Assembly: GCA_045599485.1 (NCBI GenBank) | Contig: JAZRWA010000022.1 | Span: 1 to 14,092 of the forward strand | Direction of reading: 5' to 3' | Length of the DNA stretch: 14,092 bases | Source of the DNA: Clostridia bacterium | GTDB lineage: Bacteria > Bacillota > Clostridia > Christensenellales > Aristaeellaceae | Shown here: piece by piece, positions 1 through 14,092 of the stretch | How the letters are laid out: each line of letters begins with the position of its first letter | How positions within the stretch are numbered: the first letter of the stretch is position 1 | Notes under the pieces: generated by a model | Databases searched by the model: none | What the model saw: the letters and a program-made list of their open reading frames with translations, nothing else | Told to the model about the DNA's origin: nothing | Program-made: the position numbers and the translations under genes

Positions 1-1
1 G

Positions 2-352
2 CGTCTGCTCAGGCGTGTGGTGCGTGACTATCTGACCCGCGGCGCCAGCCCCGAAAGGACGCTTTCCATGTGGAAGAGCGTACGCGCCGGCGAGGAGAAA
101 TGGATCTTCCCCTATCAGGAGCAGGCGGATGTGATCTTCAATACCGCTCTGCACTATGAACTGCCCGTGATGCGGCTGTACGCCTATGAGCTGCTGGAGA
201 AGATCACGCCCGATTTCAGTGAGTATTATCTGGCACGGGAGCTGGTGCGCATGCTCAATTATTTCCTGCCCATGCCCAGGGAAGCGCTGGAGGAGATCCC
301 GCCGCTTTCCATCCTGCGTGAGTTCATCGGCGGGAATACGTTTTACGAGTGA
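2..352 (+). CDS. Uridine/nucleoside kinase family protein, C-terminal fragment (5' end outside window)
   Basis: The frame is open from the window edge (RLLRRVVRDYLTRGASPERTLSMWKSVRAGEEKWIFPYQEQADVIFNTAL...ILREFIGGNTFYE). From memory this resembles the conserved C-terminal part of long uridine-kinase-like proteins of Clostridia. TGA stop at 350-352, followed by a hairpin terminator. Confidence 0.75.
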   Translation, partial: RLLRRVVRDYLTRGASPERTLSMWKSVRAGEEKWIFPYQEQADVIFNTALHYELPVMRLYAYELLEKITPDFSEYYLARELVRMLNYFLPMPREALEEIPPLSILREFIGGNTFYE

Positions 353-398
353 GAGGATGCACCTGAGAAAAGGAAGATTTTAACAGGACAAAACAAAA

Positions 399-447
399 CC
401 CTTGTCTGGAGGAAGTTCAACTTCCATCAGCACAAGGGTGTTTTATG
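399..447 (+). terminator. Rho-independent terminator candidate of the kinase-like gene
   Basis: Imperfect hairpin CCCTTGT (399-405) / ACAAGGG (432-438) with inner GGAAGT/ACTTCC pairing, followed by TGTTTTAT. It starts about 47 nt after the TGA. Confidence 0.6.
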
Positions 448-479
448 ATATAGATTGCCCTTTCTCGGAAGGGGTCAAA

Positions 480-524
480 GGGGGAACCATGCTTTCCGGC
501 TTGGGAAAGCGTGGTTCCCCCTTT
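480..524. terminator. Long perfect-ish hairpin between convergent genes (likely terminator of the minus-strand methyltransferase gene, possibly bidirectional)
   Basis: 18-bp stem GGGGGAACCATGCTTTCC (480-497) / GGAAAGCGTGGTTCCCCC (504-521) with one G-U pair and a 6-nt loop. A TTT run follows it on both strands. It lies about 15 nt downstream of the minus-strand TAA at 536-538. Confidence 0.6.
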
Positions 525-535
525 ATATACTCTCC

Positions 536-1339
536 TTACCGCCGTCCCAGCTGCCAGAAGGCCACAGCGCCGGCGGCAGCCACGTTCAGCGAATCCACCC
601 CGTGCGCCATGGGAATCAGCACGGTGTAATCACAGCCGCGGATGGTTTCCTCGCGCAGTCCGTTGCCTTCCGCCCCCAGCACCAGCGCCAGACGCTCCTA
701 TGCCATCAGCCGCGCGTCGTCCACGGCAATGGAACGCTTCGTCAGTGCCAATGCCGCCGAGGCAAAACCCAATGTCTTCAGCTCTCCCGCCACATCGTTG
801 GAGGGCAGGTACGCCCAAGGTACCTGAAAGACCGTGCCCATGCTGACACGTACGGCACGCCGGTGCAGCGGGTCACAGCAGGAGGGGCTCAGCAGCACCG
901 CCTCCATGCCCAGCGCGGCGGCGGAGCGGATCAGGGCGCCGATGTTGGTAGCGTCCGTCACGGCTTCCAGCACGGCGACGCGGCGCGCGCCCCGGCATGC
1001 CTCTCCGGCGGTGCGTTCGGGCGGCCGCTTCATCAGACAGCGGATGCAGCGGTCCGGCATGCAGCCGAGGATGTCGCCCAGCAGCGCATCGGGTCCGGTA
1101 TATACCGGTACGCTGTCATCACAGCGGGCCAAAGCCTCTGCCGCCTGCCCCGTGATGTGCTTTTTTTCCATCATAAAGGCCACGGGGGTGAGCCCCGCGT
1201 CCAGCGCGTGCAGCACCACTTTGCCGCTTTCCGCCATGAAAAGCGCTTCCCGGGGGCGCTGCAGGCTGCGCAGCTGCGCGTCGGTGCGCCGGAAGGGCTC
1301 CAGCTCCGGGGCGTTCGCATCCTTTACTTCAATGATCAT
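536..1339 (-). CDS. TrmH/SpoU family RNA 2'-O-methyltransferase, 267 codons if the in-frame TAG at complement(698..700) is decoded
   Basis: The track ORF 698..1339(-) ends ...SIAVDDARLMA at a TAG. The same frame continues ERLALVLGAEGNGLREETIRGCDYTVLIPMAHGVDSLNVAAAGAVAFWQLGRR to a TAA at 536-538. SpoU motif 1 (LEAVTDATNIGALIRSAAALG) is upstream of the TAG; motifs 2 and 3 (LVLGAEGNGL, IPM..GVDSLNVAAAGAVAFW) are downstream. GGAGG RBS at complement(1345..1349), 5 nt before the ATG. Confidence 0.85.
698..700 (-). other. In-frame TAG codon inside the TrmH-family gene (candidate sense/recoded UAG)
   Basis: Minus-strand reading ...CTG ATG GCA TAG GAG CGT CTG GCG CTG GTG CTG GGG GCG GAA GGC AAC... 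= L M A * E R L A L V L G A E G N. There is no frame change. Confidence 0.8.
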
Positions 1340-1368
1340 GGTGTCCTCCGCGGTGTTGTTCTGCGCCG

Positions 1369-1397
1369 ATTGTAATGCCGTGCCGCTCCGCTGTCAA
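1369..1397 (-). promoter_or_regulatory. Sigma-70/SigA-type promoter for the TrmH-family gene
   Basis: Minus strand: TTGACA (complement 1392-1397), 17-nt spacer, TACAAT (complement 1369-1374). It lies about 30 nt upstream of the ATG at 1339. Confidence 0.6.
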
Positions 1398-1415
1398 GTG
1401 CGATGCAGTTTTTGC

Positions 1416-1444
1416 TTTTATTCCGTGGGGTTTTATAGTATAAT
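1416..1444 (+). promoter_or_regulatory. Possible promoter for the PucR-type regulator gene (good -10, weak -35)
   Basis: TATAAT at 1439-1444. Only a weak -35 (TTTTAT, 1416-1421) sits at 17-nt spacing; TTGCTT at 1412-1417 would need a 21-nt spacer. Located in the divergent intergenic region. Confidence 0.35.
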
Positions 1445-1487
1445 GGATAAAATGATGTTTTTATGCCCGTGAAAGGAGAAGCAAAGC

Positions 1488-2537
1488 ATGGAGCAATCCG
1501 TTCTGGATGAGATCGGCGGCATTCTTTCCTCTTTGGACAGCCGCGTGCTGCTGCTGGATGCGTCGGGCACTTGTCTGGCCCCGTCCGCGGGGGAAAAAAT
1601 AACGCTGCCCAGGCATTTATCCTTCGGCGGCGTGGCGGAAAAAGACGGCAGGCTGTTTTTTGCTTCCGCCCGGGAGCCGCTGATCATTGCCTCCGATAAA
1701 CAGAACGGCGGCGATGTGCCGCTGATGGCGCTGCGGCTGTGCGAAAGCCTGCTGACGCGCCGGCGTACGGAGGGCGAAGGAAGCTTTTGGTACCGCCTGC
1801 TGACGGGCACACTTTCCGCCGGATAGACCGAAGCGTTGATCCGTGAGAACGGCATTGAGGACGCGCTGCGGGCGGTCATGATCCTGCAATTGCCTGCTTT
1901 GAAACATGGCACGGCGCAGGAAATGCTGGAGGCCAACCTGCCGCTGACCCCGGGACACGATGTGCTGGTGCCGCTCGACAGCCGCACGGCGGCGCTCATC
2001 AAGCCCGTTTCGGCGGGAGACAGCCCGCAGGACCTGATGGAATACGCCGAGGCGGTGCGTGAAACGCTGCTCAGCGAGGAAGGCGAAGACGCTGTGATCG
2101 CCGTAAGCGACATCATCGGCGAAGCCGCCGCGCTGCATGCCGCCTTTCAGCACGCGGGCGAAGCCATGGAAACAGGCCGTACCTTCCGCCCGGAAATGCG
2201 GGTCTACGGCTATGACGCGCTGCTGCTGGAGCGCTTTCTCAGCGATATTCCGCCCGAGACAGCGGCACGCTACCACCAACTGCTGTTCAACCGCCGCACC
2301 GCACGTGTGCTGACGGAGGAGATCCTGGACACAGTCAGCATGTTTTTTGAAAAGGACCTGAACCTGTCGGACACGGCCCGGCAGCTGTACATCCATCGCA
2401 ACACGCTGGTATACCGTCTGGATAAGATCCAGCGGCTGACCGGTCTGGATCTGAGAAAGTTTGATGATGCCGTGACCTTCCGCATGCTGCTTGAAATGAA
2501 AAAATGCGCAGAGAAGGGAAAGCACCCTACTGCCTGA
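1488..2537 (+). CDS. PucR/CdaR-family transcriptional regulator (C-terminal PucR HTH), 349 codons if the in-frame TAG at 1824..1826 is decoded
   Basis: Track ORFs 1488..1826 and 1836..2537 are in the same frame (348 nt apart). They read ...YRLLTGTLSAG * TEALIRENGIEDALRAV... The C-terminus carries the PucR-type HTH (LNLSDTARQLYIHRNTLVYRLDKIQRLTGLDLR). RBS AAAGGAGAA at 1472-1480, ATG at 1488, TGA stop at 2535-2537. Confidence 0.8.
1824..1826 (+). other. In-frame TAG codon inside the PucR-family gene (candidate sense/recoded UAG)
   Basis: GCC GGA TAG ACC GAA GCG TTG ATC CGT GAG AAC GGC = A G * T E A L I R E N G. The frame is unchanged, and the DNA-binding domain is encoded about 600 nt downstream. 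Confidence 0.75.
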
Positions 2538-2552
2538 CGGAGGAAAACAAAC

Positions 2553-3767
2553 ATGAAAAAACGGTTTTTTGCCCTGCTTTTATGCCTGGTGCTGTGCTGC
2601 TCCGCGGCTTTGGCGGACAGCGTTTTCGGCAACAACGGCGTGTTTGGCGTGGGCGGCACGGTCACCATTACCCGGGCGGAATACGAGCGCCTCAAGCAGT
2701 ATGAAAAGCTGGACGAGGTGCTGCAGTATATTGAAGCCTACTATTACAAAGAGCCCGACACCGGCGACATGATGGACATGGCCATTCAGGGCCTGCTGGC
2801 CGGCTTGAATGACCCCTATACCTTCTATTATGACGCCGAAGCCTGGGCGGACATGTGGGAGGAGGAAGAGGGCGAGTACACGGGTATCGGTCTGCAGCTG
2901 CTGGGCAGCTATCTGGACTACACCGTGACCATCACCCGTGTCTTCCGTGATACCCCCGCCGAAAAGGTGGGGCTGAGAAAGAATGACCTGCTGGTGCGTG
3001 TGGAGGACATCACCGTGACCACCGAGACCATGCAGAACGCCGTCAATGTGATGCGCGGCAAGGTGGGCGAAAGCGTGGAGGTGGAGGTGTACCGCGACGG
3101 CGAATACCTGACCTTTACGGTCGAACGCGCCGCCATCCACACCAACAATGTGGATTGGTGCATGCTGGATAACAACGTGGGCTATCTGATCCTGTACCAG
3201 TTCTCCACGGAATCGCTGCTGCAGGATTTCAAGACCGCATTGAAGGACCTGGAGGCGCAGGGCGCCAGGAGCCTGGTGCTGGATCTGCGTGACAACCCCG
3301 GCGGCTGGGTCAATGACGCCGTCGGTGTGGCGGATGTTTTCCTGGATAAAAAACTGGTGGTCTATTCCCGTACCCGTGACCAGGAACGCACCGATGAGCA
3401 GTATACCAAAGCCGGGGCGGATGATATTCCGCTGGTGGTGCTGATCAACGGCTCCTCCGCTTCGTCCAGCGAGATCTTGTCCGGCTGTCTGCAGGATTAC
3501 GGCCGCGCCGTCATCATGGGCAGCCAGAGCTTCGGCAAGGGCGTCATGCAGTATGTGATCGGCCTGTCCGATAACAAGACGGGCATGCAGTTTACCTTCT
3601 GCGAGTACTTTACCCCCAACGGCAACAGCGTGCACGGCATCGGCATTACCCCGGATATCGCGGTGGAAATGCCCGCCGATCTGAAAAACAAGCTGTTTGA
3701 GGTAGGCGACATGGCCGACCCGCAGCTGGCGGCGGCATGGGAAGAGGCCGTGCGCCTGCAGCAGTGA
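2553..3767 (+). CDS. S41 family C-terminal processing (tail-specific) protease, exported
   Basis: 404 aa. Signal peptide MKKRFFALLLCLVLCCSAALA/DS, a PDZ-like region, the S41 serine motif (LINGSSASSSEILSGCLQD) and the FGKG lysine motif. GGAGG at 2539-2543, TGA stop. Confidence 0.9.
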   Translation: MKKRFFALLLCLVLCCSAALADSVFGNNGVFGVGGTVTITRAEYERLKQYEKLDEVLQYIEAYYYKEPDTGDMMDMAIQGLLAGLNDPYTFYYDAEAWADMWEEEEGEYTGIGLQLLGSYLDYTVTITRVFRDTPAEKVGLRKNDLLVRVEDITVTTETMQNAVNVMRGKVGESVEVEVYRDGEYLTFTVERAAIHTNNVDWCMLDNNVGYLILYQFSTESLLQDFKTALKDLEAQGARSLVLDLRDNPGGWVNDAVGVADVFLDKKLVVYSRTRDQERTDEQYTKAGADDIPLVVLINGSSASSSEILSGCLQDYGRAVIMGSQSFGKGVMQYVIGLSDNKTGMQFTFCEYFTPNGNSVHGIGITPDIAVEMPADLKNKLFEVGDMADPQLAAAWEEAVRLQQ

Positions 3768-3779
3768 CGGGAGGTTCAA

Positions 3780-4742
3780 GTGAAAAAACGGATATCGACC
3801 TTTTTGCTGCTGATGCTGCTTGTGTCGCTGCTGTGCCCGGCGGTGCTGGCGGATGAGGTGATTCCCGCCCATGATAAGCACGAACGCCCCGAGATCGAGG
3901 GCATGGGGGAGGACGGTTTTCTGACACAGGCGGAGGCGGAATTTGTGCTGGCCGATGCAGAAGAAGGCCTGTGGATGTATGTCAGCGATGCCCTGCGCAT
4001 TGAAATTGACCGCTACACCGCCTCCAACCGCAAGCTGATCTGGTACACCGCGCACATATGGCAAAAGGAAGGGGACGGCATGCACACCTTCCTGGCCGAC
4101 CCGGCGCATCCCTTCGGTCTAGCGCTGCTGGTGGAGGAAATTGCCCGGCAGTATCAATTGGTGTTTGCCATCAATGGTGACTTTTTTGAGGATCGTTACC
4201 GTGAGGGCGAAAAGATCGGCTGCGTCATCAAAAACAAAGTGGTCATCAACCGCTATGCGCAGGAACTGGATAACCTGCCCACGCTGGATGTGCTGGCGCT
4301 GTTTGAGGACGGCACCATGAAATGCTTTAGGGCGCGCAGCAACAGCGCGGACAAATATCTGGCCATGGGCGTGCGCGACACCATCTGCTTCGGTCCCATT
4401 CTGGTGTCCGAGGGCAGCATCAATATGAAGCAGCTGGAGGAATACGGCCGCTCCCGCGAGCCGCGCACCGCGCTTGGCATGGTGGAAAACGGACATTATG
4501 TTGCCATCGTCTGCGAGGGACGCTCGGAGGAGAGCGACGGCCTGCGCCTGAGTGAGCTGGCCCCCCTGATGCAGGCGGAGGGCTGTGTGGAAGCGCTCAA
4601 CCTTGACGGCGGTCAGACCTCGGTCATCAGCTTTATGGGCGAAAAGCTCAATGCCACCGGTACCTTCCATAACAGCTCCAGACCGCGCCGCGTGACGGAT
4701 ATCGTGGGCATTGGCGTAAGCGATCTGGTTTCCGCCGAGTAA
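3780..4742 (+). CDS. Phosphodiester glycosidase family protein (NAGPA / DUF2233-like), exported, paralog 1
   Basis: 320 aa, GTG start 5 nt after GGGAGG (3769-3774). Signal peptide MKKRISTFLLLMLLVSLLCPAVLA/DE. Family-typical motifs: REPRTALG...GHYVAIVCEGR and EALNLDGGQTSV. TAA stop. Confidence 0.8.
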   Translation: MKKRISTFLLLMLLVSLLCPAVLADEVIPAHDKHERPEIEGMGEDGFLTQAEAEFVLADAEEGLWMYVSDALRIEIDRYTASNRKLIWYTAHIWQKEGDGMHTFLADPAHPFGLALLVEEIARQYQLVFAINGDFFEDRYREGEKIGCVIKNKVVINRYAQELDNLPTLDVLALFEDGTMKCFRARSNSADKYLAMGVRDTICFGPILVSEGSINMKQLEEYGRSREPRTALGMVENGHYVAIVCEGRSEESDGLRLSELAPLMQAEGCVEALNLDGGQTSVISFMGEKLNATGTFHNSSRPRRVTDIVGIGVSDLVSAE

Positions 4743-4766
4743 ACAACAGAGGAGAAAAACAACCAT

Positions 4767-5711
4767 ATGAAAAAAGCGCTGATGGCGCTGCTGCTTTTGC
4801 TTTCGGTGTGCGGCGGCGCGCTGGCGGATGTGCCGGTGAGAGCCAATGAGCCGTGTGCCCGCCCCGAGGTGGAAAACCTGGGGGAGGATGGCTATCTGAC
4901 CGAAACGGATGAGCTTGTGTTCATCGATGAAACGGCGGGACTGTGGTACTATGTCAGTGATGAGCTGCGCGTGGAGATCGACCGCTATACGGCCTCCGAC
5001 CGCAAGCTGATCTGGTATGTGGCGCATCTGTATCAGAAAACGCCCACTGGTCTGCGTACCGCGCTGGCAAATGAAAAAAAGCCCTACGATGACCGCATGT
5101 GGGTGTATGATCTGGCTGAGAGGGAAAAGATGGTCTTTGCCACCAACGGCGATTATTTTGCCACCCGTCTGGATGAATCCGCCGGTGTGGGCATCGTCAT
5201 CCGTCATGGACGGGTCATCAGCTCCAAGGGCAAAGCGAGCAGCAAGATCCCCACGCGGGAGATCATCGCCATGTATGAGGACGGCAGCATGAAGTGCTAT
5301 GGCGCCAACGAATACAAGGCGTCCTCTCTGGCGGAAGCCGGCGTGCGTGATACGCTGTGCTTTGGCCCCATTCTGGTACGGGATGGGCAGGTGGAGACCA
5401 AACGCCTGGACGAGATGGGCTCCTCCCGTGAGCCGCGGTGCGCTATCGGCATGGTGGAGCCCGGCCATTATGTGGCCATCCTGACGGAAGGCCGTACGGA
5501 TGACTCGATCGGCGCACGTCTTTTGACGCTGGGCGATATGATGGCGGCGGAGGGCTGTGTGGAGGCGCTGAACCTGGACGGCGGACAATCGGCTGTCATG
5601 TGCTTCATGGGCAAAAAGATCAGCTCCACCGGGCATACTTCCACCAGCACCCAGAGCCGCAAGATGACCGACATTGTCGGCATCGGCTACAGTGAACTTG
5701 TAGGACAGTGA
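4767..5711 (+). CDS. Phosphodiester glycosidase family protein (NAGPA / DUF2233-like), exported, paralog 2
   Basis: 314 aa. Signal peptide MKKALMALLLLLSVCGGALA/DV. Collinear with the upstream paralog (EIDRYTASDRKLIWYVAHLY, REPRCAIGMVEPGHYVAILTEGR, AEGCVEALNLDGGQSAV). TGA stop. Confidence 0.8.
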   Translation: MKKALMALLLLLSVCGGALADVPVRANEPCARPEVENLGEDGYLTETDELVFIDETAGLWYYVSDELRVEIDRYTASDRKLIWYVAHLYQKTPTGLRTALANEKKPYDDRMWVYDLAEREKMVFATNGDYFATRLDESAGVGIVIRHGRVISSKGKASSKIPTREIIAMYEDGSMKCYGANEYKASSLAEAGVRDTLCFGPILVRDGQVETKRLDEMGSSREPRCAIGMVEPGHYVAILTEGRTDDSIGARLLTLGDMMAAEGCVEALNLDGGQSAVMCFMGKKISSTGHTSTSTQSRKMTDIVGIGYSELVGQ

Positions 5712-5713
5712 AT

Positions 5714-6892
5714 ATGAAAAAAATGCTGATGTATGCCGTGCTGCTGCTGACGCTGCTGATGACGGCGGCGTGTGCAGAGACGGCGGCGGAGCGTACCGCC
5801 TCCTGCACATTCAAGCTGGGAAAAACGGCTTTGACACAGAAGGAACGCGGCAAGCTGCTGGACAGGGATTATTCCACCCATTATGATATCGCGAGCCGCA
5901 AAACACTGACCATCGAAAGCGAAAAGCAGCTGGGCGGCATGTACCTGCAGATCTTTGATGTGGTGCGCGCGCTGACCATGGAAGTGAAAACCAACGGCGA
6001 ATGGCAGGAGTACTGCGTCAATCCCCAGCATCTGAGCGACTGGTACGCTTTCCCGGATAAGACCACGGCAGTGCGCATTTACAACGCCGATAAGGAAAAC
6101 AAGCTCAAGCTGGCGGAAGTGACCCTGTACGGCCCCGGGGACAAGCCCGAAAAGGTACCGCAGTGGATCGATCTGGAGAAGTGCGACCTGATGCTTCTGG
6201 CGACGCATCCCGATGACGATCTGCTGTGGTTCGGCGGCCTGATGCCCACCTACGCGGGGGAAAGGGGCTACAAGGTGCAGGTGGTGTACATGGTGCCCAC
6301 CGGCGGACTGCGCAAGCTGGAAATGCTGGACGCCCTGTGGACCTGCGGCGTCACGGCTTATCCCGGCCTGCTCAATCTGCGCGACCAGCGCGGCAAAAAC
6401 CTCAGTGAGCAGTACTCCCTGTGGGGACAGAAGACCGTCACCACCAAGGTGGTGGAGGCCATCCGCCGCTATAAGCCGTAGGTGCTGGTCACGCATGGTC
6501 TGGGCGGTGAATACGGACACCCCGGTCATAAGGCCGCGGCGGATACCGTGACGCGCGCCGTCGGTTATGCCGCGGATAAAAGCAACCGCCCCGCCTCAGT
6601 GGAAAAGTACGGTGTGTGGCAGGTCAAAAAGGTCTATCTGCATGAGTACAGCAAAAATCAGATCGAGATGGACTGGCATGTGCCGTTGGAAGCCTTTGGC
6701 GGCAAGGACAGCCTGACCGTCGCGCAGGAGGCCATGCTCTGCCACGCCAGCCAGGTCAAGGGCGGCTGGATGGTGGAGGACCACGGCAAGCATGATAATA
6801 CGCTTTTCGGTCTTTACAGCACCACGGTGGGTGAGGACATCGAGAAGAATGATTTTATGGAAAATATCGTCCTGGAGAACAATACACCGTAA
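5714..6892 (+). CDS. PIG-L/LmbE family deacetylase with lipoprotein-type signal and extra N-terminal domain, 392 codons if the in-frame TAG at 6479..6481 is decoded
   Basis: Track ORFs 5708..6481 and 6482..6892 are contiguous in the same frame: ...VVEAIRRYKP * VLVTHGLGGEYGHPGHKAAA... The PIG-L motif LLATHPDDDLLWFGG is upstream of the TAG and the HP(G/D)H motif is downstream. The likely start is ATG 5714 (MKKMLMYAVLLLTLLMTAAC, lipobox-like); GTG 5708 is an alternative. TAA stop at 6890-6892. Confidence 0.8.
6479..6481 (+). other. In-frame TAG codon inside the PIG-L deacetylase gene (candidate sense/recoded UAG)
   Basis: TAT AAG CCG TAG GTG CTG GTC ACG CAT GGT = Y K P * V L V T H G. It sits inside the conserved 'R.xKP-x-VvvTH' stretch of the family. 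Confidence 0.8.
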
Positions 6893-6898
6893 CGCATG

Positions 6899-6928
6899 GA
6901 AAGGGAGTCCGGATGAGGGCTCCCTTTC
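6899..6928 (+). terminator. Stem-loop after the PIG-L gene (possible terminator or mRNA-end structure; lacks a clear U-tract)
   Basis: GAAAGGGAG (6899-6907) pairs with CTCCCTTTC (6920-6928), extendable by TCC/GGG. It starts 7 nt after the TAA. It is followed by TGACAAAC, which is not T-rich. Confidence 0.4.
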
Positions 6929-6967
6929 TGACAAACAGGATTTGAACATTTCTTGCTCGGTTGTTAT

Positions 6968-6996
6968 TTGAAATTTTTTTCGGGAGAGTATATAAT
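6968..6996 (+). promoter_or_regulatory. Sigma-70/SigA-type promoter for the glycosyltransferase gene
   Basis: TTGAAA (6968-6973), 17-nt spacer, TATAAT (6991-6996), in an AT-rich intergenic region about 30 nt upstream of the ATG at 7027. Confidence 0.55.
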
Positions 6997-7026
6997 AGAA
7001 AAAAGACCGAAAAAAGGAGGTGCACG

Positions 7027-8298
7027 ATGGAACCAAGGATCAGAACAGCTTTGCTGAACGACTCTTTTCCGCCGCAGATCGACGGCGTGGCCAACGCGGT
7101 GATCAATTATGCCTCGCTGCTGCATGGCCGCGGGGATGATGTCATGGTGATCACGCCGGCCTATCCCGGTGTGGAGGATCATTATGATTATGAGGTGCTG
7201 CGCTATTCCAGTGTGGACACCACCAAGATCATCGGTTATCGTGCCGGTTACCCTTTTTCGGCTTCCGCTGTGCAGCGGGTGGTGGATTTTGCCCCTGATA
7301 TTCTGCACACGCATTGCCCCGTCTCTTCGCTGCTGATGGCCCGCGTGGTGCGGTAGAGGACCGGTGCGCCCATTGTGTTTACCTATCATACCAAGTTTGA
7401 TATCGATATCCGCACCGCCATCAAAAGCAAGGCACTGCAGGACAGCCTGATCCGCGCCATTCTGTGGAACATTGAGGGCGCCGATGAGGTATGGACGGTC
7501 AGCCGCGGCGCGGGAGAGAATCTGGAATCCATCGGCTATCAGGGCAAGTGGCGCGTGATGGACAACGGTGTTGATTTTGCCCGCGGTCACGCCTCGATGG
7601 AAAAACAGAACGAGATCAGCCGCCTGCATAACCTGACCGATCACGCACCGGTGTTTTTGTTTACCGGCCGTCTGCGCTGGTACAAGGGCATCCGCATCAT
7701 TCTTTAGGGTCTGGCCAAGGCCAAAGCCCGCGGCGCCAAGTTTCATATGCTGTTTGTGGGCGATGGCAGCGACCGCGGTGAGATCGAGGAGCTGGCGCAA
7801 AAGCTGGGGCTGACCGATCAATGCGTCTTTGTGGGCGCGGTGCAGGATCGTGAGCTGCTGCGGGCGTATTACAGCCGTGCCGATCTGTTCCTGTTCCCGT
7901 CTACCTTTGATACCAACGGCATCGTGGTGCGCGAGGCGGCCGCCTGCGGTCTGGGTGCCGTGCTGGTCAAGGGCAGCTGTGCCGCCGAGGGCATTACCGA
8001 TGGACAGAATGGCATCCTCATCGGTGAAAATGCCGACAGTCTGTGCGCGGCGGTGCTGTTTGCCTGCTCCCACCGCAATGAAGTGCGGCAGGTCGGCCTG
8101 CATGCGGAGAATGAGATCTATCTTTCCTGGGAGGATTCGGTGGCGCGGGCTCGTACCCGTTATGCCGAGCTGCTGGAGGAGCGCAAAGCAAACCCGCCGG
8201 AAAAGCGGCATGATGCCTTTCCTTTCCTGTCCGACATTGTGGAGGGCGCCGGCCGCCTGCAGCGGTGGCATCGCCTGCTGAACGCCAAGCTGAAGTGA
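7027..8298 (+). CDS. Family 4 (GT-B) glycosyltransferase, 423 codons if the two in-frame TAGs (7354..7356, 7705..7707) are decoded
   Basis: Track ORFs 6961..7356, 7375..7707 and 7747..8298 all share one frame. They read ...CPVSSLLMARVVR * RTGAPIVFTYHTKFDIDI... and ...GRLRWYKGIRIIL * GLAKAKARGAKFHMLFVGDGSD... The N-terminus is GT4-like (LNDSFPPQIDGVANAV). The C-terminal Glycos_transf_1-like domain has FPSTFDTNGIVVREAAACG. AAGGAGG at 7013-7019, ATG at 7027, TGA stop at 8296-8298. Confidence 0.85.
7354..7356 (+). other. In-frame TAG codon #1 inside the GT4 gene (candidate sense/recoded UAG)
   Basis: GTG GTG CGG TAG AGG ACC GGT GCG CCC ATT GTG TTT ACC TAT CAT = V V R * R T G A P I V F T Y H. No frame change. 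Confidence 0.8.
7705..7707 (+). other. In-frame TAG codon #2 inside the GT4 gene (candidate sense/recoded UAG)
   Basis: ATC ATT CTT TAG GGT CTG GCC AAG GCC AAA = I I L * G L A K A K. It lies in the 'KG(l/i)xxLlxAl' helix that opens the C-terminal Rossmann domain. Confidence 0.8.
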
Positions 8299-8328
8299 TT
8301 CCGCTTCAATAAACAATCATCAAAACAG

Positions 8329-8361
8329 GCACCTTTTGCGATCGGGCAAAGGTGCTTTTTG
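8329..8361 (+). terminator. Rho-independent terminator of the glycosyltransferase gene
   Basis: GCACCTTTTGC (8329-8339) pairs with GCAAAGGTGC (8346-8355) with one bulged T, followed by TTTTTG. Confidence 0.8.
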
Positions 8362-8381
8362 CTTGCGGCGGCATTTTTGCG

Positions 8382-8414
8382 CAAAACAAAAATCCTTGAG
8401 GAAATCTCAAGGAT
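8382..8414 (-). terminator. Rho-independent terminator of the tRNA-Ser pair
   Basis: Minus strand: ATCCTTGAG-ATTTC-CTCAAGGAT (9-bp stem, 8392-8414) followed by TTTTGTTTTG. It begins 4 nt after the tRNA 3' CCA. Confidence 0.8.
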
Positions 8415-8418
8415 CTTG

Positions 8419-8510
8419 TGGCGGAGAAGGAGAGATTTGAACTCTCGCTGCCGTTATCCAGCACTACTCCCTTAGCAGGGGAGCCCCTTCGGCCTCTTGG
8501 GTACTTCTCC
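8419..8510 (-). tRNA. tRNA-Ser (anticodon GCU), class II with long variable arm, CCA encoded
   Basis: Minus strand folded by hand: GGAGAAG-TA-CCC..GGG-G-CTCCC-CTGCTAA-GGGAG-(20-nt variable arm)-GAGAG-TTCAAAT-CTCTC-CTTCTCC-G-CCA. The anticodon loop CU-GCU-AA reads AGY. Confidence 0.9.
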
Positions 8511-8532
8511 ATCGGTCGGTAATCGGCAAAAC

Positions 8533-8621
8533 TGGCGGAGAGAGAGGGATTCGAACCCCCGGTGCCTTTCGACATCACCAGTTTTCAAGACTGGCGCCTT
8601 AAACCGCTCGGCCATCTCTCC
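8533..8621 (-). tRNA. tRNA-Ser (anticodon UGA), class II with long variable arm, CCA encoded
   Basis: Minus strand folded by hand: GGAGAGA-TG-GCC..GGC-G-CCAGT-CTTGAAA-ACTGG-(variable arm)-GGGGG-TTCGAAT-CCCTC-TCTCTCC-G-CCA. The anticodon loop CU-UGA-AA reads UCN. Confidence 0.9.
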
Positions 8622-8659
8622 GTACCGGCTCGATAGCCTGTCTGCCAATGTACTGATAA

Positions 8660-8688
8660 AGTATAGCAGTTTTTTTCCCTGTTGTCAA
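8660..8688 (-). promoter_or_regulatory. Sigma-70/SigA-type promoter for the tRNA-Ser pair
   Basis: Minus strand: TTGACA (complement 8683-8688), 17-nt spacer, TATACT (complement 8660-8665). It lies about 40 nt upstream of the tRNA 5' end at 8621. Confidence 0.6.
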
Positions 8689-8764
8689 TGCCCGTTCGCT
8701 AATTTCTTTTGAGGCGCGGGGGAAGGGAAAACGCGGCTTTTTTTTCGCAAAATGCCCATAATTA

Positions 8765-8794
8765 TTGACATAATACGGTGTTTTATCCTATAAT
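8765..8794 (+). promoter_or_regulatory. Sigma-70/SigA-type promoter for prfC-typA
   Basis: TTGACA (8765-8770), 18-nt spacer, TATAAT (8789-8794). A small hairpin TGTGGC-AAC-GCCACA (8802-8816) sits just before the RBS GGAAGGAGGG. Confidence 0.65.
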
Positions 8795-8831
8795 AACTGA
8801 TTGTGGCAACGCCACAGGAAGGAGGGCACTT

Positions 8832-10421
8832 ATGCTCGCAGAGGAAGTAGCCCGCAGAAGAACATTTGCTATTATCTCCCATCCCGACGCCGGCAAAACC
8901 ACATTGACCGAAAAACTGCTGCTGTACGGCGGCGCCATCCGCCAGGCCGGTTCCGTCAAGGCCCGCAAGGCAGAACGCCACGCGACCAGCGACTGGATGG
9001 AGATCGAAAAGCAGCGCGGCATCTCCGTTACCTCCAGTGCCATGCAGTTCTCCTTCAACGGTTTTGATATCAACATTCTCGATACCCCCGGCCATCAGGA
9101 CTTTTCCGAGGATACCTACCGCGTGCTGGTGGCAGCGGACAGCGCTGTGATGCTCATCGACGCCGCCAAGGGCGTGGAGGAGCAGACCATCAAGCTGTTC
9201 AAGGTGTGCCGTATGCGCGGCATTCCGATTTTTACCTTTGTCAACAAGATGGACCGTGCCGCCAAGGATCCCTTCGCCCTGATGGACGAACTGGAAAACG
9301 TGCTTGGCATCCACGCCTGCCCCATCAACTGGCCCATTGGCACCGACGGCGATTTTCAGGGCGTGTATCACCGTGATACCCGCATGATCGAATTGTATTC
9401 CGGCGGCGATCACGGCAAGAACAAGGCGCAGAAGACCGATGTTTCTCTGGACGATCCCGACCTGGGAACGCTGCTGGAAAAGCACTACATCAACCGCCTG
9501 AATGACGAGATCGAGCTGCTGGACGAGGCCGGCGACGATTTTGATCTGGAGGCCGTGCGCGAAGGCAGGCTGACCCCCATGTTCTTTGGCAGCGCCGTCA
9601 CCAACTTCGGTGTGGAGCCTTTCCTGGAGCGGTTCCTGTCCTACACCACGCCGCCCCTGCCCCGCGAGAGCAATGAGGGCTGGGTGCAGCCCGATGATGA
9701 ACGCTTCAGCGGCTTCATCTTCAAAATTCAGGCCAACATGAACCCCGCCCACCGTGACCGTCTGGCCTTCCTGCGCATCGTCAGCGGCCAGTTCACCAAA
9801 GGCATGACGGTGTGGCATTCCGGCACCGGCAAGGAGATCCAGGTCAAGCAGCCGCAGCAGTTTATGGCAGATGAGCGTGAAGGCATCGAAACGGCCTGGC
9901 CCGGCGATATCATCGGTCTGTTCGATCCCGGTATTTATCATCTGGGCGACACGCTGTGCGTGGGCCGCAAGATCCGCTTCCAGAAGATCCCCGTGTTTGC
10001 GCCCGAGCATTTTGCCCGTGTGCGTCCGCTGGATTCGATGAAGCGCAAGCAGTTTGTCAAGGGCATCATGCAGCTGAGCGAGGAAGGCGCCATCCAGACC
10101 TTCCGCCGCACCGAGACCGGCATTGAGGATTTCCTTGTCGGCGTGGTCGGTGTGCTGCAGTTTGATGTGCTGACCTACCGCCTCAAGAGTGAGTACGGTG
10201 TCGATCTGGTACTGGAGCAGTTGCCCTTCCGCTATGTGCGTTGGGTGACCGCCACCGAGATCCCCGTGCCCGACCTGAAGCTGACCAGCACCTCCGGCCG
10301 TGCTTTTGACGCCGAGGAGCGGGATGTACTGCTGTTTGAAAACGAGTGGAGCATCCGTCTGGCACAGGAAAACAACAAGGGCCTGGAGCTGGCCGAACTG
10401 GCTCCCCGCGAGATCTACTGA
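8832..10421 (+). CDS. prfC: Peptide chain release factor 3 (RF3), translational GTPase
   Basis: 529 aa starting MLAEEVARRRTFAIISHPDAGKTTLTEKLLLYGGAIRQAGSVKARK...DWMEIEKQRGISVTSS...DTPGHQDF..NKMDR. This is the characteristic RF3 N-terminus with G motifs, and the length is RF3-like. ATG 8832 lies 5 nt after GGAAGGAGGG. TGA stop at 10419-10421. Confidence 0.9.
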   Translation: MLAEEVARRRTFAIISHPDAGKTTLTEKLLLYGGAIRQAGSVKARKAERHATSDWMEIEKQRGISVTSSAMQFSFNGFDINILDTPGHQDFSEDTYRVLVAADSAVMLIDAAKGVEEQTIKLFKVCRMRGIPIFTFVNKMDRAAKDPFALMDELENVLGIHACPINWPIGTDGDFQGVYHRDTRMIELYSGGDHGKNKAQKTDVSLDDPDLGTLLEKHYINRLNDEIELLDEAGDDFDLEAVREGRLTPMFFGSAVTNFGVEPFLERFLSYTTPPLPRESNEGWVQPDDERFSGFIFKIQANMNPAHRDRLAFLRIVSGQFTKGMTVWHSGTGKEIQVKQPQQFMADEREGIETAWPGDIIGLFDPGIYHLGDTLCVGRKIRFQKIPVFAPEHFARVRPLDSMKRKQFVKGIMQLSEEGAIQTFRRTETGIEDFLVGVVGVLQFDVLTYRLKSEYGVDLVLEQLPFRYVRWVTATEIPVPDLKLTSTSGRAFDAEERDVLLFENEWSIRLAQENNKGLELAELAPREIY

Positions 10422-10439
10422 TAGAAAGTGTGAAACTGC

Positions 10440-12266
10440 ATGATTCGTTCTGATATCCGCAACATTGCGATTATCGCCCACGTTGACCACGGCAAGACCT
10501 CCCTGGTCAACGAAATGCTCAAGCAGGGCGGCGTTTTCCGTGCCAATCAGGAGGTGGCTGACCGCGTCATGGACTCCAACGATCTGGAGCGCGAGCGCGG
10601 CATCACCATTCTGTCCAAAAACACGGCGGTGCACTACGGCGATGTCAAGATCAACATCGTCGACACCCCCGGCCACGCCGACTTTGGCGGCGAGGTGGAG
10701 CGCGTGCTCAAAATGGTGGACGGCGTGCTGCTGCTGGTGGACAGCTTTGAAGGTCCCATGCCGCAGACCCGCTTCGTGCTGTCCAAGGCGCTGGCGCTGA
10801 ACCTGCCCGTGCTGATCTGCATCAACAAGATCGACCGTCCCGACGCCCGCTGCGGCGAGGTGGTGGACGAGATCCTCGATCTGCTGATCGACCTGAACGC
10901 CGATCCCGAAACGCTGGAGCGCCCCATCCTGTATGCTTCTGCCCGCAAGGGTACCTGTACGCTGGATCTGGAGCAGCCCGGCACCGACCTGCGTCCGCTG
11001 TTTGAAGCCATCCTCAAGTACATTCCCGCCCCCGAGGGCGAGATGGATGGCCCTGCGCAGGTGCTGATCTCCACCATTGACTACAGCGAATACGTGGGCC
11101 GTATCGGCATCGGCCGCATCAGCCGCGGCAGCCTGAGATCCGGTCAGATGGTGGTGCGCTGCAACTATCTGGATGACAAGGTGACGCCCCCGTGGCGCTT
11201 GACCGAGCTGAGCACCTTTGACGGCCTCAAGCGTATCCCGACCGATCAGATGGCCATGGGCGATATCGTGGCGCTGACGGGTCTGCAGGATATCAGCATC
11301 GGTGATACGGTGTGTCAGCCCGATACGGTGGAGCCCCTGCCCTTTGTGACCATCAGCGAGCCCACGGTGACCATGACCTTCTCGGTCAACGATTCGCCCT
11401 TTGCCGGCCGCGAAGGCCAGTTTGTGACGAGCCGTCACCTGCGTGCCCGTCTCTATCGTGAACTGCAGACCGATATGTCCCTGCGCGTCAAGGACGGCGA
11501 AACGCCCGATTGCTTTGAGGTGTGCGGACGCGGTGAGCTGCATCTGTCCATTCTGATCGAGACCATGCGCCGTCAGGGCTATGAGTTCCAGGTGTCCAAA
11601 CCCGAGGTCATCTACAAGGAGATCGACGGCGTATCCTGCGAGCCCATTGAGCGCATGGTGGCGGATGTGCCCTCCGCTTATGCCGGCGCCGTCATCGAAA
11701 AGATCGGCCGCCGCCGCGGCACGCTGGAAAGCATGGACGGCACCGACCGTGTGCGCCTGGAGTTCCTGGTGCCCAGCCGCGGACTGTTTGGCTACCGCAG
11801 TGAGTTTTTGACCGATACCCGCGGCGAAGGCGTGATGAGCTCGGTATTTGAAAAGTACGAGCCCTTCCGCGGCGACATTCCGCACCGCGCTGTGGGCGCC
11901 CTGATCGTGCACGAAACGGGCGAGACCACGACCTATGGTCTGTTCTACGCGCAGGAGCGCGGCACGCTGTTCATGGGCAATCAGGTGCCTGTGTACGCCG
12001 GTCAGATCTGCGGCGCAAGCAGCCGCCCCGGCGATATCCCCGTCAATGTTTGCCGCAAAAAGCATGTCAACAACATCCGCAACAGCTCTGCCGCCGAAGA
12101 CAGCATGCGCCTGGTCAGCGTGCATCCGCTGACGCTGGAGGAGTGCCTGGAGTTTATCGACAGCGATGAGCTGCTTGAGATCACGCCCAAGACCCTGCGC
12201 ATGCGCAAGCGTGTGCTGAGCCATGAGCAGCGCATGAAGAACGCTGCCCGCGGCATCAAGTGCTGA
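10440..12266 (+). CDS. typA: Translational GTPase TypA/BipA
   Basis: 608 aa. [24 protein letters not shown]..., [37 protein letters not shown], and a C-terminal BipA-type domain. TGA stop. Confidence 0.92.
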
Positions 12267-12868
12267 CGCCGCTGCTTTCCGCCATAGGCATAGCAGTTTG
12301 CCTGCCGCTGTTTATGCGGCTGAAAAGAAAGGCAAACGTGCCGATGGCTGCGGTGCTGGCAGCCAAATGCGGCGGCACGGCGATGGCGGCGCTGATGGCC
12401 CTTCAGGGTGCGCTGCGGCTGAACACCGCGGGAGCATGGCTGATGTTTGCCGCCGCAGTGGTGTGCGTCGTTGCCGATGGGGTGCTGCATGTGCGCTTTT
12501 TTGCCGGCGGCATCCTGTTTGCCCTGGGGCATGTGCTGTACATGATCTCCTTCTGTTTGCGGGGATTGCCGGGCTGGCAGAGCGCTGTGATGTTTGCGCT
12601 GCTTGCCGCGTCCGCGATGGCGTTTATCCGCATACAGAACGAAAAGCCGCAGCCCTTCATTGTGCCCTACGCGCTGGTGCTGTGCCTGATGACCGCCATG
12701 TCCTTTTCAAGAGGTCCCCTGTGCTTTGCCGGGGCGCTGCTGTTTGCCTTTTCGGATGGCATGCTGCTGTGGCGCATGGAAGGGCATCACAGTGAAGCCT
12801 CCGACTGGGTCGCCATGGGCAGCTATTACGCCGCGCAGTATTTGCTGGCATTGTCGCTGCTACGGTGA
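12260..12868 (+). CDS. YhhN-family (lysoplasmalogenase-like, TMEM86-type) integral membrane protein
   Basis: About 202 aa, multi-pass hydrophobic, with YhhN-like motifs (ILFALGHVLYM, GALLFAFSDGMLLW). The GTG start at 12260 overlaps the typA TGA (GTGCTGA). An internal ATG start at about 12314 cannot be excluded. TGA stop. Confidence 0.65.
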   Translation: MLTPLLSAIGIAVCLPLFMRLKRKANVPMAAVLAAKCGGTAMAALMALQGALRLNTAGAWLMFAAAVVCVVADGVLHVRFFAGGILFALGHVLYMISFCLRGLPGWQSAVMFALLAASAMAFIRIQNEKPQPFIVPYALVLCLMTAMSFSRGPLCFAGALLFAFSDGMLLWRMEGHHSEASDWVAMGSYYAAQYLLALSLLR

Positions 12869-12886
12869 AAAAGGGGCAAAAAAGAC

Positions 12887-12916
12887 TTGTCAAGGAACCA
12901 CTTTGTGTGGTATAAT
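12887..12916 (+). promoter_or_regulatory. Sigma-70/SigA-type promoter (extended -10) for rplS
   Basis: TTGTCA (12887-12892), 18-nt spacer ending in TGG, TATAAT (12911-12916). It leaves a leader of about 95 nt before the rplS ATG. Confidence 0.55.
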
Positions 12917-13014
12917 TACCCTTGCGTAAACGGATGGTCCGCTTTCGGACAGCAACGGTCTGTACCTGACCGGTCCGGAATGAACATCTATGAGGGAAGG
13001 AGGAACTATTCAAA

Positions 13015-13365
13015 ATGAGCGAAATTATCAAGAGCATTGAAAATGCGCAGCTTCGTACCGATCGTCCCGCATTCAACGTTGGCGACACCGTGCGTGTGCA
13101 GGTCAAGGTTGTTGAAGGTACCCGCGAGCGTCTGCAGGCGTTCGAAGGTGTTGTGATTGCCAAGCGCAATGGCTCCTGCCGTGAGACCTTTACGGTCCGC
13201 CGCGTGAGCTACGGCATCGGCGTGGAACGTACGTTCCCGCTGCATAGCCCCCGTGTGGACAGCATTACTGTTGTCCGTAAGGGCAAGGTGCGCCGCGCCA
13301 AGCTGTATTATCTGCGTGGTCTGCAGGGCAAGGCTGCCAAGATCAAGGACATCACCCGCGAATAA
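13015..13365 (+). CDS. rplS: 50S ribosomal protein L19
   Basis: 116 aa: [111 protein letters not shown]. This is a canonical L19. GAAGGAGG RBS, TAA stop. Confidence 0.95.
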
Positions 13366-13382
13366 TCAAAGGTCGTCCTTTC

Positions 13383-13417
13383 AGAGGAAGAGGAGCAATC
13401 CTTTTCCTCTTTTTTTC
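13383..13417 (+). terminator. Rho-independent terminator of rplS
   Basis: AGAGGAAGAGGA (13383-13394), GCAA loop, TCCTTTTCCTCT (13399-13410). 12-bp stem with one G-U pair, followed by TTTTTTC. Confidence 0.85.
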
Positions 13418-13447
13418 TCAGTGGAGTATCTTGAGGAGGTTCAGTTG

Positions 13448-14092
13448 ATGTATAAAAGAATGATGGTTTTGCTGTTGGCACTGCTGCTGTTTGGCACAGC
13501 GGCTTTGGCGGACAGTGATGCTTCCATTGAGTTTCGCTCTGTTCCGTGGGGAACATCGGTAATGGAAACCTGTGCGCGGATCTTGCAGGCGGCAAAAGAC
13601 GGCAATACGCTCACTGCGGAAGCGATGGCAGCGAATAGCGTGGAAGGCGCCACGTTCCTTTCTGTGCTGACCGACTGGAAGGGGGATATGGTGCCTGTGC
13701 CAATGATCGCACAGGGACCGTGTTTCAAGCTGGTTGCCACAGACCGTGTGAGCCTGAAGATGGCCGGGCATGATGTTGACACCCTGTGGCTGGGTTTTGT
13801 CAGGGAGCAGGGCGAATGGAGCCTGGCGACGGTACTGATCGGCCTGAAAGCCGGCAGCGGTACCGATGCACAGTTTGAGGATCTGTCCGCAAAGCTGACC
13901 CAAGTGTATGGCGACAGCCATGAGAAGAACGGTTATGCCTGGTGGGAAGGAAAGGACAGCACCATGGTGGGGCTGGTGGCGCAAAACAGGGACGCCTGGT
14001 ATATGAACGCATTGAGCGCGGATGCCTCCCTGTGCTATGTGAATGTGCTGATGTACGCGAAAGTGTACAGCATGGAGGCGGTGGAAAACATG
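13448..14092 (+). CDS. Exported hypothetical protein, N-terminal 215 codons (3' end outside window)
   Basis: Translated by hand: ATG 13448 lies 8 nt after GGAGG (13435-13439). MYKRMMVLLLALLLFGTAALA/DSDASIEFRSVPWG... is open with no stop to the window end, which is why it is missing from the ORF track. Typical Sec signal peptide. No family recognised. Confidence 0.7.
   Translation, partial: MYKRMMVLLLALLLFGTAALADSDASIEFRSVPWGTSVMETCARILQAAKDGNTLTAEAMAANSVEGATFLSVLTDWKGDMVPVPMIAQGPCFKLVATDRVSLKMAGHDVDTLWLGFVREQGEWSLATVLIGLKAGSGTDAQFEDLSAKLTQVYGDSHEKNGYAWWEGKDSTMVGLVAQNRDAWYMNALSADASLCYVNVLMYAKVYSMEAVENM

Follow-up and report, generated by a model that had tools for sequence, protein, structure and literature searches.

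UAG as a probable sense codon, most likely for glutamate, in a lineage of uncultured gut Clostridia

Is the TAG codon that interrupts a TrmH/SpoU-family RNA 2'-O-methyltransferase gene in a gut Clostridia genome a stop, or is it translated, and if translated, does that concern one gene or the whole lineage that carries it? The gene lies in contig JAZRWA010000022.1 of assembly GCA_045599485.1, a metagenome-assembled genome (MAG) of the Aristaeellaceae; we refer to the entire stretch analysed, positions 1 to 14,092, as the window. Because at least five genes contain in-frame TAG codons, at positions that differ among strains, read-through as we see it is a property of the lineage and not of the TrmH gene alone. 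We consider it likely that UAG is a sense codon across this lineage of uncultured gut Clostridia, and that it probably specifies glutamate. We also examine the TrmH gene itself, the evidence that the codons following each TAG are translated, the residue that UAG would encode, and how such a code might have arisen.

The TAG codon of the TrmH gene

A preliminary description of this DNA had placed the TAG between motif 1 and motifs 2 and 3 of the SPOUT methyltransferase fold, and had argued that termination there would leave a 213-residue protein lacking the latter two. Homolog alignment and solved structures bear out both points. The TAG is codon 214 of a frame that, with TAG taken as sense, runs to 267 codons, and the match to the Pfam SpoU_methylase domain (PF00588; residues 121-261, E = 5.4e-32, 111.3 bits against a cut-off of 29.7) crosses it, as do unbroken alignments over residues 114/122-264 to the solved SPOUT methyltransferases RlmB 1GZ0 and 7QIU (residues 122-264 of the product for the PDB entry 1GZ0). 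When the product is aligned with 29 full-length homologs of 59-68% identity (30 sequences in all), invariant columns mark motif 1 (N132, G134, R138), motif 2 (L221, G222, E224, G225) and motif 3 (I242, P243, M244, S250, L251, N252). Motifs 2 and 3 have most of their invariant columns beyond TAG214, and the invariant or near-invariant positions 3' of that codon in the 29 homologs comprise L217, A218, L221, G222, E224, G225, G227, L228, I242, P243, M244, V248, D249, S250, L251 and N252 onward. A 213-residue product ending at TAG214 would therefore lack motifs 2 and 3; all three motifs of the C-terminal, S-adenosylmethionine-binding knot region are found, the second and third only if TAG214 is translated. 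No NCBIfam equivalog for a specific enzyme (RlmB, TrmH, TrmJ or NshR) reaches its cut-off, the best being RlmB TIGR00186 with 99.7 bits against 160, and we therefore call the gene only a generic TrmH/SpoU-family RNA 2'-O-methyltransferase.

The sequence beyond the TAG has the properties of a translated one. As had been described, the 53 codons that follow hold no further stop up to a TAA, after which comes a strong hairpin (-43.4 kcal/mol, z = -8.1; none of 200 shuffled sequences equally stable) that is probably the true end of the TrmH transcript. Between the window and its sister strains, introduced below, nearly all differences in these 53 codons are synonymous, with a ratio of non-synonymous to synonymous rates (dN/dS) of 0.02-0.04. 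Column 214 holds Glu in 25 of the 29 distant homologs, the five sister strains have GAA (four) or AAA (one), the TAG being private to the window, and every TrmH ortholog at 59-92% identity is full length. Neither of the outcomes named beforehand as contrary to read-through, decay downstream of the TAG or orthologs that end at it, was seen, and the evidence supports the claim that the gene needs read-through of UAG to be functional. The assertion that no usable restart codon follows the TAG stands only in part: no ATG precedes the Met of MAHG, but only ATG had been considered, and a GTG at codon 220 (680..682, minus strand), six codons past TAG214, was overlooked. It is the source of a 48-residue open reading frame (ORF; 536..682) in ORF lists, and a restart there would yield a separate 48-residue peptide; the other TAG sites argue against reinitiation, leaving the conclusion unchanged.

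Databases hold the gene in pieces. The 90%-identity cluster that contains the truncated 213-residue entry includes intact 267-residue orthologs with Glu at codon 214, its remaining members being fragments of 67, 160 and 198 residues; the DNA of those fragments carries in-frame TAGs elsewhere in TrmH, in a frame that is otherwise intact and ends in the same terminal TAA. The intact orthologs had suggested a single-gene pseudogene made by a simple GAG-to-TAG change, a candidate dropped because sister contigs carry other in-frame TAGs. Taken with the behaviour of the lineage, the Glu column and the conserved 53 downstream codons lead us to infer translation of TAG214 itself, and the gene most likely yields a full-length, 267-residue SPOUT methyltransferase with its knot-forming C-terminus intact.

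In-frame TAG codons across genes and strains

We compared the window with seven sister contigs from five further sources, whose proteins are 81-99% identical to those of the window: two contigs of the NCBI MAG GCA_024404275.1 ('Clostridia bacterium Horse_feces223'), two of ENA ERZ27247129, and the Logan assemblies of SRA runs SRR27361835, SRR21150819 and SRR21151013. The window's own MAG, this horse-faeces MAG and the four further metagenome assemblies constitute the lineage, six strains in all. With coding strands in the window set by periodicity of GC at third codon positions (GC3) and by Pfam, five in-frame TAGs fall in 4 of its 12 genes (TrmH codon 214, codon 113 of a PucR-like regulator, codon 256 of a PIG-L deacetylase, and codons 110 and 227 of a GT4 glycosyltransferase, GT), with Pfam domains extending over them, and all 11 gene ends are TAA or TGA. 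Codon-level comparison of the six strains raises the count to eight TAG sites in five genes (Table 1), the fifth being the first of two NAGPA-family genes (NAGPA1), with sister frames otherwise intact and ending in TAA or TGA. Three of these TAGs are common to independent assemblies or projects: GT 110 to four, TrmH 68 to three and NAGPA1 162 to two.

The strains are well separated, the window differing from the others by 0.3-0.7 synonymous substitutions per site (dS); because TAG110 of the glycosyltransferase is present in all four strains covering it despite that divergence, it predates their split. Across the 313 codons that follow it (111-423), the window differs from the other strains by 89-94 synonymous and 16-19 non-synonymous changes (dS 0.54-0.58, dN/dS 0.043-0.050); dN/dS is 0.02-0.05 among the other three strains, and the same range holds over all strain pairs at dS 0.12-0.58. 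Downstream of the common TAG68 of TrmH, dN/dS among the three TAG-bearing strains is 0.14-0.16; downstream of the common TAG162 of NAGPA1, two strains (L041 and L042) differ by 15 synonymous changes and 1 non-synonymous change (dN/dS 0.02), and the value downstream of PIG-L TAG256 is 0.094. The comparison thus shows that in-frame TAGs are present in several unrelated genes, and that some were passed down to strains now substantially diverged, in genes under strong purifying selection downstream. Codons 111-116 of the glycosyltransferase, which lie between TAG110 and the nearest possible restart, GTG117, have only synonymous differences (AGG/CGC, both Arg; GGT/GGC; ATT/ATA), which means that translation continues in frame immediately past the TAG. 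Continued reading of this kind, together with sites shared between different projects and assemblers, argues for excluding pseudogenes, sequencing errors and termination followed by reinitiation.

As a control, the same homology-based screen was run on 23 loci of related genomes (48-73% CtpB identity), with coding frames picked by a GC3-based filter, since homology searches with all ORFs were contaminated by conserved antisense frames. Internal TAGs number 9 in 6,159 testable codons of the lineage and 1 in 35,973 of the relatives (Fisher P = 2.6e-7), and the single relative TAG, in a gappy and poorly aligned stretch, is doubtful; the screen found no internal TAG in a close human-gut relative (RF3 91% identical). 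Within the lineage's genes the interruptions are TAG only, with no in-frame TAA, TGA or frameshift, and under a model of nonsense mutation the chance that seven of seven events would be TAG is 0.003-0.03.

Which residue would UAG specify? Glu codons, GAG or GAA, are found as alternatives at six of the seven polymorphic sites; at the remaining one the alternatives encode Asp (GAC or GAT). Among the codons that a single step would turn into TAG, GAG accounts for just 27.5%, and the Glu bias thus exceeds mutational opportunity (P = 0.002-0.02); three sites alternate only with GAA, GAC or GAT, two steps from TAG, a pattern that fits a path via GAG whose last step would be synonymous. The homolog columns agree. 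At PucR 113, where the surrounding region is no more than 34-46% identical, 26 of 27 homologs have Glu and the most distant has Asp; at GT 227 Asp or Glu is present in 42 of 59 diverse homologs, and at TrmH 68 Glu in 18 of 29. The PIG-L 256 column corresponds to His in the MshB structure, and solved structures are uninformative as to the residue there. In a Codetta-like sum of column log-odds over six columns, a small sample, Glu is the one consistent amino acid at +8.4 bits, every other residue scoring -3.3 or below (Asp -3.3, His -5.6, Lys -5.7, Arg -5.9, Gln -6.0). On these six informative columns, it is probable, though not certain, that UAG is read as Glu.

The surroundings of these genes are those of a bacterial chromosome and not of a phage, because they include core genes (prfC, typA) and a PucR-CtpB arrangement common to many relatives. 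In order, the window holds the 3' end of a nucleoside kinase gene, TrmH on the minus strand, the PucR-like regulator, a CtpB-type S41 peptidase, the two NAGPA-family proteins, the PIG-L deacetylase, the GT4 glycosyltransferase, two tRNA-Ser genes, prfC (RF3), typA, a YhhN protein and an unknown gene; ARAGORN and Rfam detect no tRNAs in the window besides the two tRNA-Ser. The region is GC-rich (58.6%) and not obviously reduced. Terminators alternate between TGA and TAA among the sisters (window 2553-5711 against L003, L041 and L042), never to TAG: CtpB has TGA in the window but TAA in three sisters, and for NAGPA2 the window and L041 have TGA, L003 and L042 TAA. Towards the contig end (12869-14092) the YhhN gene is followed by a 580-nt gap and then a secreted-protein or lipoprotein gene (13448..14092, cut by the contig end), whose sole database homolog, 74% identical, is on a 1-kb contig, unlike the horse-faeces MAG (L041:8697-9241), in which rplS (L19) comes next after YhhN; as compared here, the region after YhhN in the window is a strain-specific insertion or rearrangement.

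Table 1. Features of the window and codons found at the TAG sites of the lineage
Feature	Position	Strand	Observations
Hairpin, probably a bidirectional terminator	476..525	.	Between the convergent nucleoside-kinase and TrmH genes
TrmH/SpoU-family RNA 2'-O-methyltransferase gene	536..1339	-	267 codons with TAG as sense; ATG 1339..1337, TAA 538..536
TrmH codon 230	650..652	-	GAG in window; TAG in L003; CAG in 3 strains; TCG in 1
TrmH codon 214, in-frame TAG	complement(698..700)	-	In loop right before motif-2 strand (LALVLGAEGNGL); TAG in window; GAA in 4, AAA in 1
TrmH codon 68	1136..1138	-	GAG in 3 strains including window; TAG in 3 (L001, L002, L003, three sequencing runs)
PucR-like regulator gene (HTH_30)	1488..2537	+	TAG at codon 113; stop TGA; Pfam
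PucR codon 113	1824..1826	+	TAG in window; GAG in 3, GAA in 1
NAGPA-family gene (NAGPA1)	3780..4742	+	Codon 162 is GAA in window
NAGPA1 codon 162	4263..4265	+	TAG in L041 and L042; GAA in window and L003
PIG-L deacetylase gene	5714..6892	+	TAG at codon 256; stop TAA; Pfam PF02585 at residues 160-282
PIG-L codon 256		+	TAG in window; GAC, GAT in 2 sisters (Asp)
GT4 glycosyltransferase gene	7027..8298	+	TAG at codons 110 and 227; stop TGA; Pfam domains span both
GT codon 110	7354..7356	+	TAG in 4 of 4 strains covering the site; no alternative codon
GT codon 227	7705..7707	+	TAG in window; GAA in 3 sisters
Two tRNA-Ser genes, anticodons GCU and UGA	8419..8621	-	ARAGORN, Rfam; neither able to read UAG
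prfC (RF3) and typA	8832..12266	+	Without TAG; both end TGA; Pfam; 97-99% identical in sister strains

Possible origin of the proposed sense codon, and competing readings

A fuller account, which we regard as evenly poised between right and wrong, is that this is the first natural bacterial code in which UAG has passed to a standard amino acid, Glu: a recent codon capture caught at an early stage, with TAG as a rare, strain-variable synonym of GAG and GAA, RF1 lost or sidelined, and a new tRNA-Glu(CUA) charged by a non-discriminating glutamyl-tRNA synthetase (GluRS). UAG would be decoded by a Glu-charged tRNA with anticodon CUA, for which the simplest route would be duplication of tRNA-Glu(CUC) and a single C36-to-A change; its charging could fall to the non-discriminating type of GluRS that Clostridia typically have. 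Loss of RF1, or its being outcompeted, would go with this; the factor may be gone, making the reassignment full, or it may be retained, with efficient but ambiguous suppression.

Such a change would have been cheap, in the manner of codon capture, as TAG is barely used as a terminator in the family. It ends 6 of 134 genes in relatives (4.5%), none of about 18 in the human-gut relative and none of 22 in the lineage, and because TAG terminators are so rare, few genes would be harmed if UAG no longer terminated. UAA is still a terminator, since TAA closes 13 of the lineage's 22 genes. Among relatives (L007-L030, L043-L052) TAA is dominant, at about 60-75% of stops, despite a GC content of 55-60%. 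The family's unusual stop-codon profile may have predisposed it to TAG reassignment. The share of TAG among putative Glu codons is about 1.6% in the window (5 against 302 GAA plus GAG), and this low share, together with positions that vary among strains, suggests that the assignment is young or weakly used.

Several observations weigh against UAG as a lineage-wide codon for Glu. The evidence is confined to a single chromosomal neighbourhood (12 genes, about 14 kb) in six strains, so that a genome-wide claim is an extrapolation. Four of the five window TAGs, TAG214 included, are private to one assembly and could be very recent, and at the sole lineage-fixed TAG, GT 110, most distant homologs have Arg or Lys, Glu being present in only two of the closest. 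The absence of TAG from 22 gene ends is not significant, about one being expected at the family rate of 4.5%. Bacterial GluRS normally reads the anticodon, and Glu charging of a CUA tRNA is not trivial. The lineage sequence covered, some 50 kb that represent only about 20 kb of unique genome, holds just the two tRNA-Ser and no tRNA(CUA), and a scan of JGI metagenomes and IMG/VR for a Glu-type amber-suppressor anticodon arm gave 55 chance matches and no tRNAs, which is uninformative.

If UAG is translated, its product might be Gln, inserted by a supE-like tRNA-Gln(CUA) as in TAG-recoded phages (code 15) and perhaps derived from a resident prophage. No amber reassignment is commoner than TAG to Gln, which takes only one anticodon change, and TrmH codon 230 is CAG in three sisters; moreover, tRNA-Gln in Clostridia is initially charged with Glu, which makes Gln and Glu outcomes mechanistically close. 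Gln nevertheless scores -6.0 bits over the six homolog columns against +8.4 for Glu, and six of the seven polymorphic sites alternate with GAA or GAG, only one of them also with CAG, although under this reading TAG could be reached synonymously with less difficulty, by a C/T transition from CAG; the PucR 113 column is invariant Glu in all but its most distant homolog, and the locus is core chromosome and not phage. We consider this reading unlikely.

The lineage might instead use pyrrolysine (Pyl), its amber codon ambiguous between stop and Pyl as in Pyl-using archaea, with TAGs tolerated at permissive sites. The rarity of TAG terminators in the family and the fixed GT 110, in its mostly Lys/Arg column, suit this proposal, and low TAG usage has been described as the first step to tolerating Pyl, amber codons being read both ways in Methanosarcina (PMC12626013). 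However, the columns do not call for a lysine-like residue (Lys, -5.7 bits); the sites are at Glu or Asp columns, their alternative codons specify Glu or Asp and in a single case Lys, and the bulky Pyl at the near-invariant Glu of PucR 113 would be an unlikely neutral change. Methylamine methyltransferase and pyl genes are absent from every locus covered, a weak test. Altogether we judge Pyl decoding quite unlikely.

Were the TAGs true stops, with translation ending there and restarting at a GTG or TTG close by to give split proteins, the alternative starts one to seven codons past several of them would be explained (a TTG after TrmH 68, GTG at TrmH 220, GTG directly after PIG-L 256 and GTG at GT 117), as would the split calls that gene callers output. 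The six codons between TAG110 and GTG117 of the glycosyltransferase are, however, conserved as protein, no start codon occurs for 14 codons past GT 227, and the Glu bias beyond mutational proximity would go unexplained; to split SPOUT-knot or Rossmann domains in five genes of one lineage, against none of 139 testable genes in relatives, is also unparsimonious. We hold reinitiation to be very unlikely.

Ordinary nonsense mutations in decaying pseudogenes, or errors of assembly or sequencing such as G-to-T damage, could account for window TAGs private to one assembly, the more so as GAG becomes TAG by a single G-to-T change and as TAGs at scaffold gaps in an unrelated lineage resembled artefacts. 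Against this stand the TAGs shared by four, three and two independent assemblies, the strong purifying selection downstream without TAA or TGA stops or frameshifts, which is not the pattern of a pseudogene, and the three sites whose alternatives are all two steps away. For the shared sites this reading is largely refuted, and overall we find it highly improbable. Gene-specific programmed read-through of the TrmH UAG by local mRNA context, under an otherwise standard code, would be the simplest reading of a single gene, and a purine follows every TAG, but it is extremely improbable given that TAG214 is absent from all five sisters, which have TAGs elsewhere in the same gene, that four other genes also carry TAGs, and that we found no common sequence motif or structure around the TAGs.

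Three other loci came to attention alongside the UAG codons of the window's lineage. A second apparently recoded lineage, seen in nucleoside-kinase contigs L031-L040 (L031:3780-3960 and its counterpart in L032-L040; another gut lineage, 70% identical to the window's kinase fragment), was not counted, its TAGs being at scaffold N-gaps or contig ends. There the kinase gene is interrupted inside a stretch of about 10 codons: TAG occupies a different codon in each of three contigs (aligned to TTG, AAG and GAG elsewhere) and six scaffolds have runs of N at the same place, which looks like an assembly breakpoint or strain heterogeneity, odd as it is that all three changes create TAG. In the human-gut relative (L043:6030-6627, also L044, L048 and L051) a 194-residue gene is called as 113 plus 38 residues in four strains and in one piece in six; since the screen found no in-frame TAG there, the split must have another cause (TAA, TGA or a frameshift). 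A minus-strand ORF in a water-buffalo colon MAG (L009:12448-12787) is a short-period tandem repeat with one TAG-rich frame (ALQWVXPX...), almost certainly the repeat read in the wrong frame.

Relation to known genetic codes

If UAG is indeed Glu here, the genetic code gains a new entry, from a free-living, GC-rich gut bacterium, and RF1-dependent termination would be dispensable in nature, as it has been engineered to be in Escherichia coli. With TAG sites still polymorphic, the lineage would offer an early snapshot that bears on the debate between codon capture and ambiguous intermediates. Standard-code gene callers split or truncate the genes of this lineage, and databases hold fragments of 213, 109, 112, 136 and 67 residues; as a result, its MAG quality, numbers of pseudogenes and functional profiles are wrong. 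A natural Glu-accepting amber suppressor pair, if one exists, might serve as an orthogonal part for synthetic biology.

According to Shulgina and Eddy, the known bacterial code changes all reassign UGA (PMC8629427), and the bacterial reassignments listed in a 2026 paper on Eggerthellaceae are UGA-to-Trp and UGA-to-Gly only (PMC13462651); among the publications searched, natural bacterial reassignment of UAG other than to Pyl did not turn up. As a stop-codon reassignment, what we describe belongs to none of code 4, code 25, code 15 or the Pyl system, though it has likenesses to each. With UGA-to-Trp (code 4) and UGA-to-Gly (code 25), as described for Mycoplasmatales, insect endosymbionts, Gracilibacteria/Absconditabacteria and Eggerthellaceae MAGs, it shares a lineage-level change from stop to sense that is seen through in-frame stops in conserved MAG genes, and the same expectation that a tRNA acquires a new anticodon and that the corresponding release factor is lost (PMC13462651, PMC8629427). 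Those codes concern UGA and RF2, whereas here the codon is UAG, the factor RF1, the region GC-rich and the inferred residue Glu.

Gut phages of code 15 (crAss-like phages and Lak megaphages) likewise have in-frame TAGs in prokaryotic sequence from the gut, and are reported to use a suppressor tRNA(CUA) (10.1101/2021.08.26.457843, PMC7886860). They are, however, phages in standard-code hosts and read UAG as Gln, whereas the TAGs here belong to a neighbourhood of core chromosomal genes (prfC, typA, tRNA-Ser, ctpB) syntenic with standard-code relatives; neither a phage context nor a Gln signal was found, the columns favouring Glu over Gln by about 14 bits. The pairing of UAG with Glu is familiar from the UAR-to-Glu nuclear codes described in Blastocrithidia nonstop and some ciliates (PMC12153298, PMC11687900). 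Unlike those eukaryotes, in which termination depends on eRF1 and UAA and UAG were reassigned together, this lineage still terminates at UAA.

Pyl decoding, the only known natural sense use of bacterial UAG, is likewise accompanied by low TAG usage, and by an ambiguous reading of the codon (PMC12626013), but it is tied to methylamine methyltransferases and pyl genes, while the TAGs here occupy positions for Glu or Asp in genes of housekeeping or cell-envelope function. A further likeness is to E. coli engineered to lack RF1, in which, according to reports on those strains, a bacterium is viable with a non-stop UAG when few essential genes end in TAG (PMC4434889, PMC11903333), much as TAG terminators are nearly absent from this family; those are laboratory constructs, of which this lineage, if our reading is true, would be the natural counterpart.

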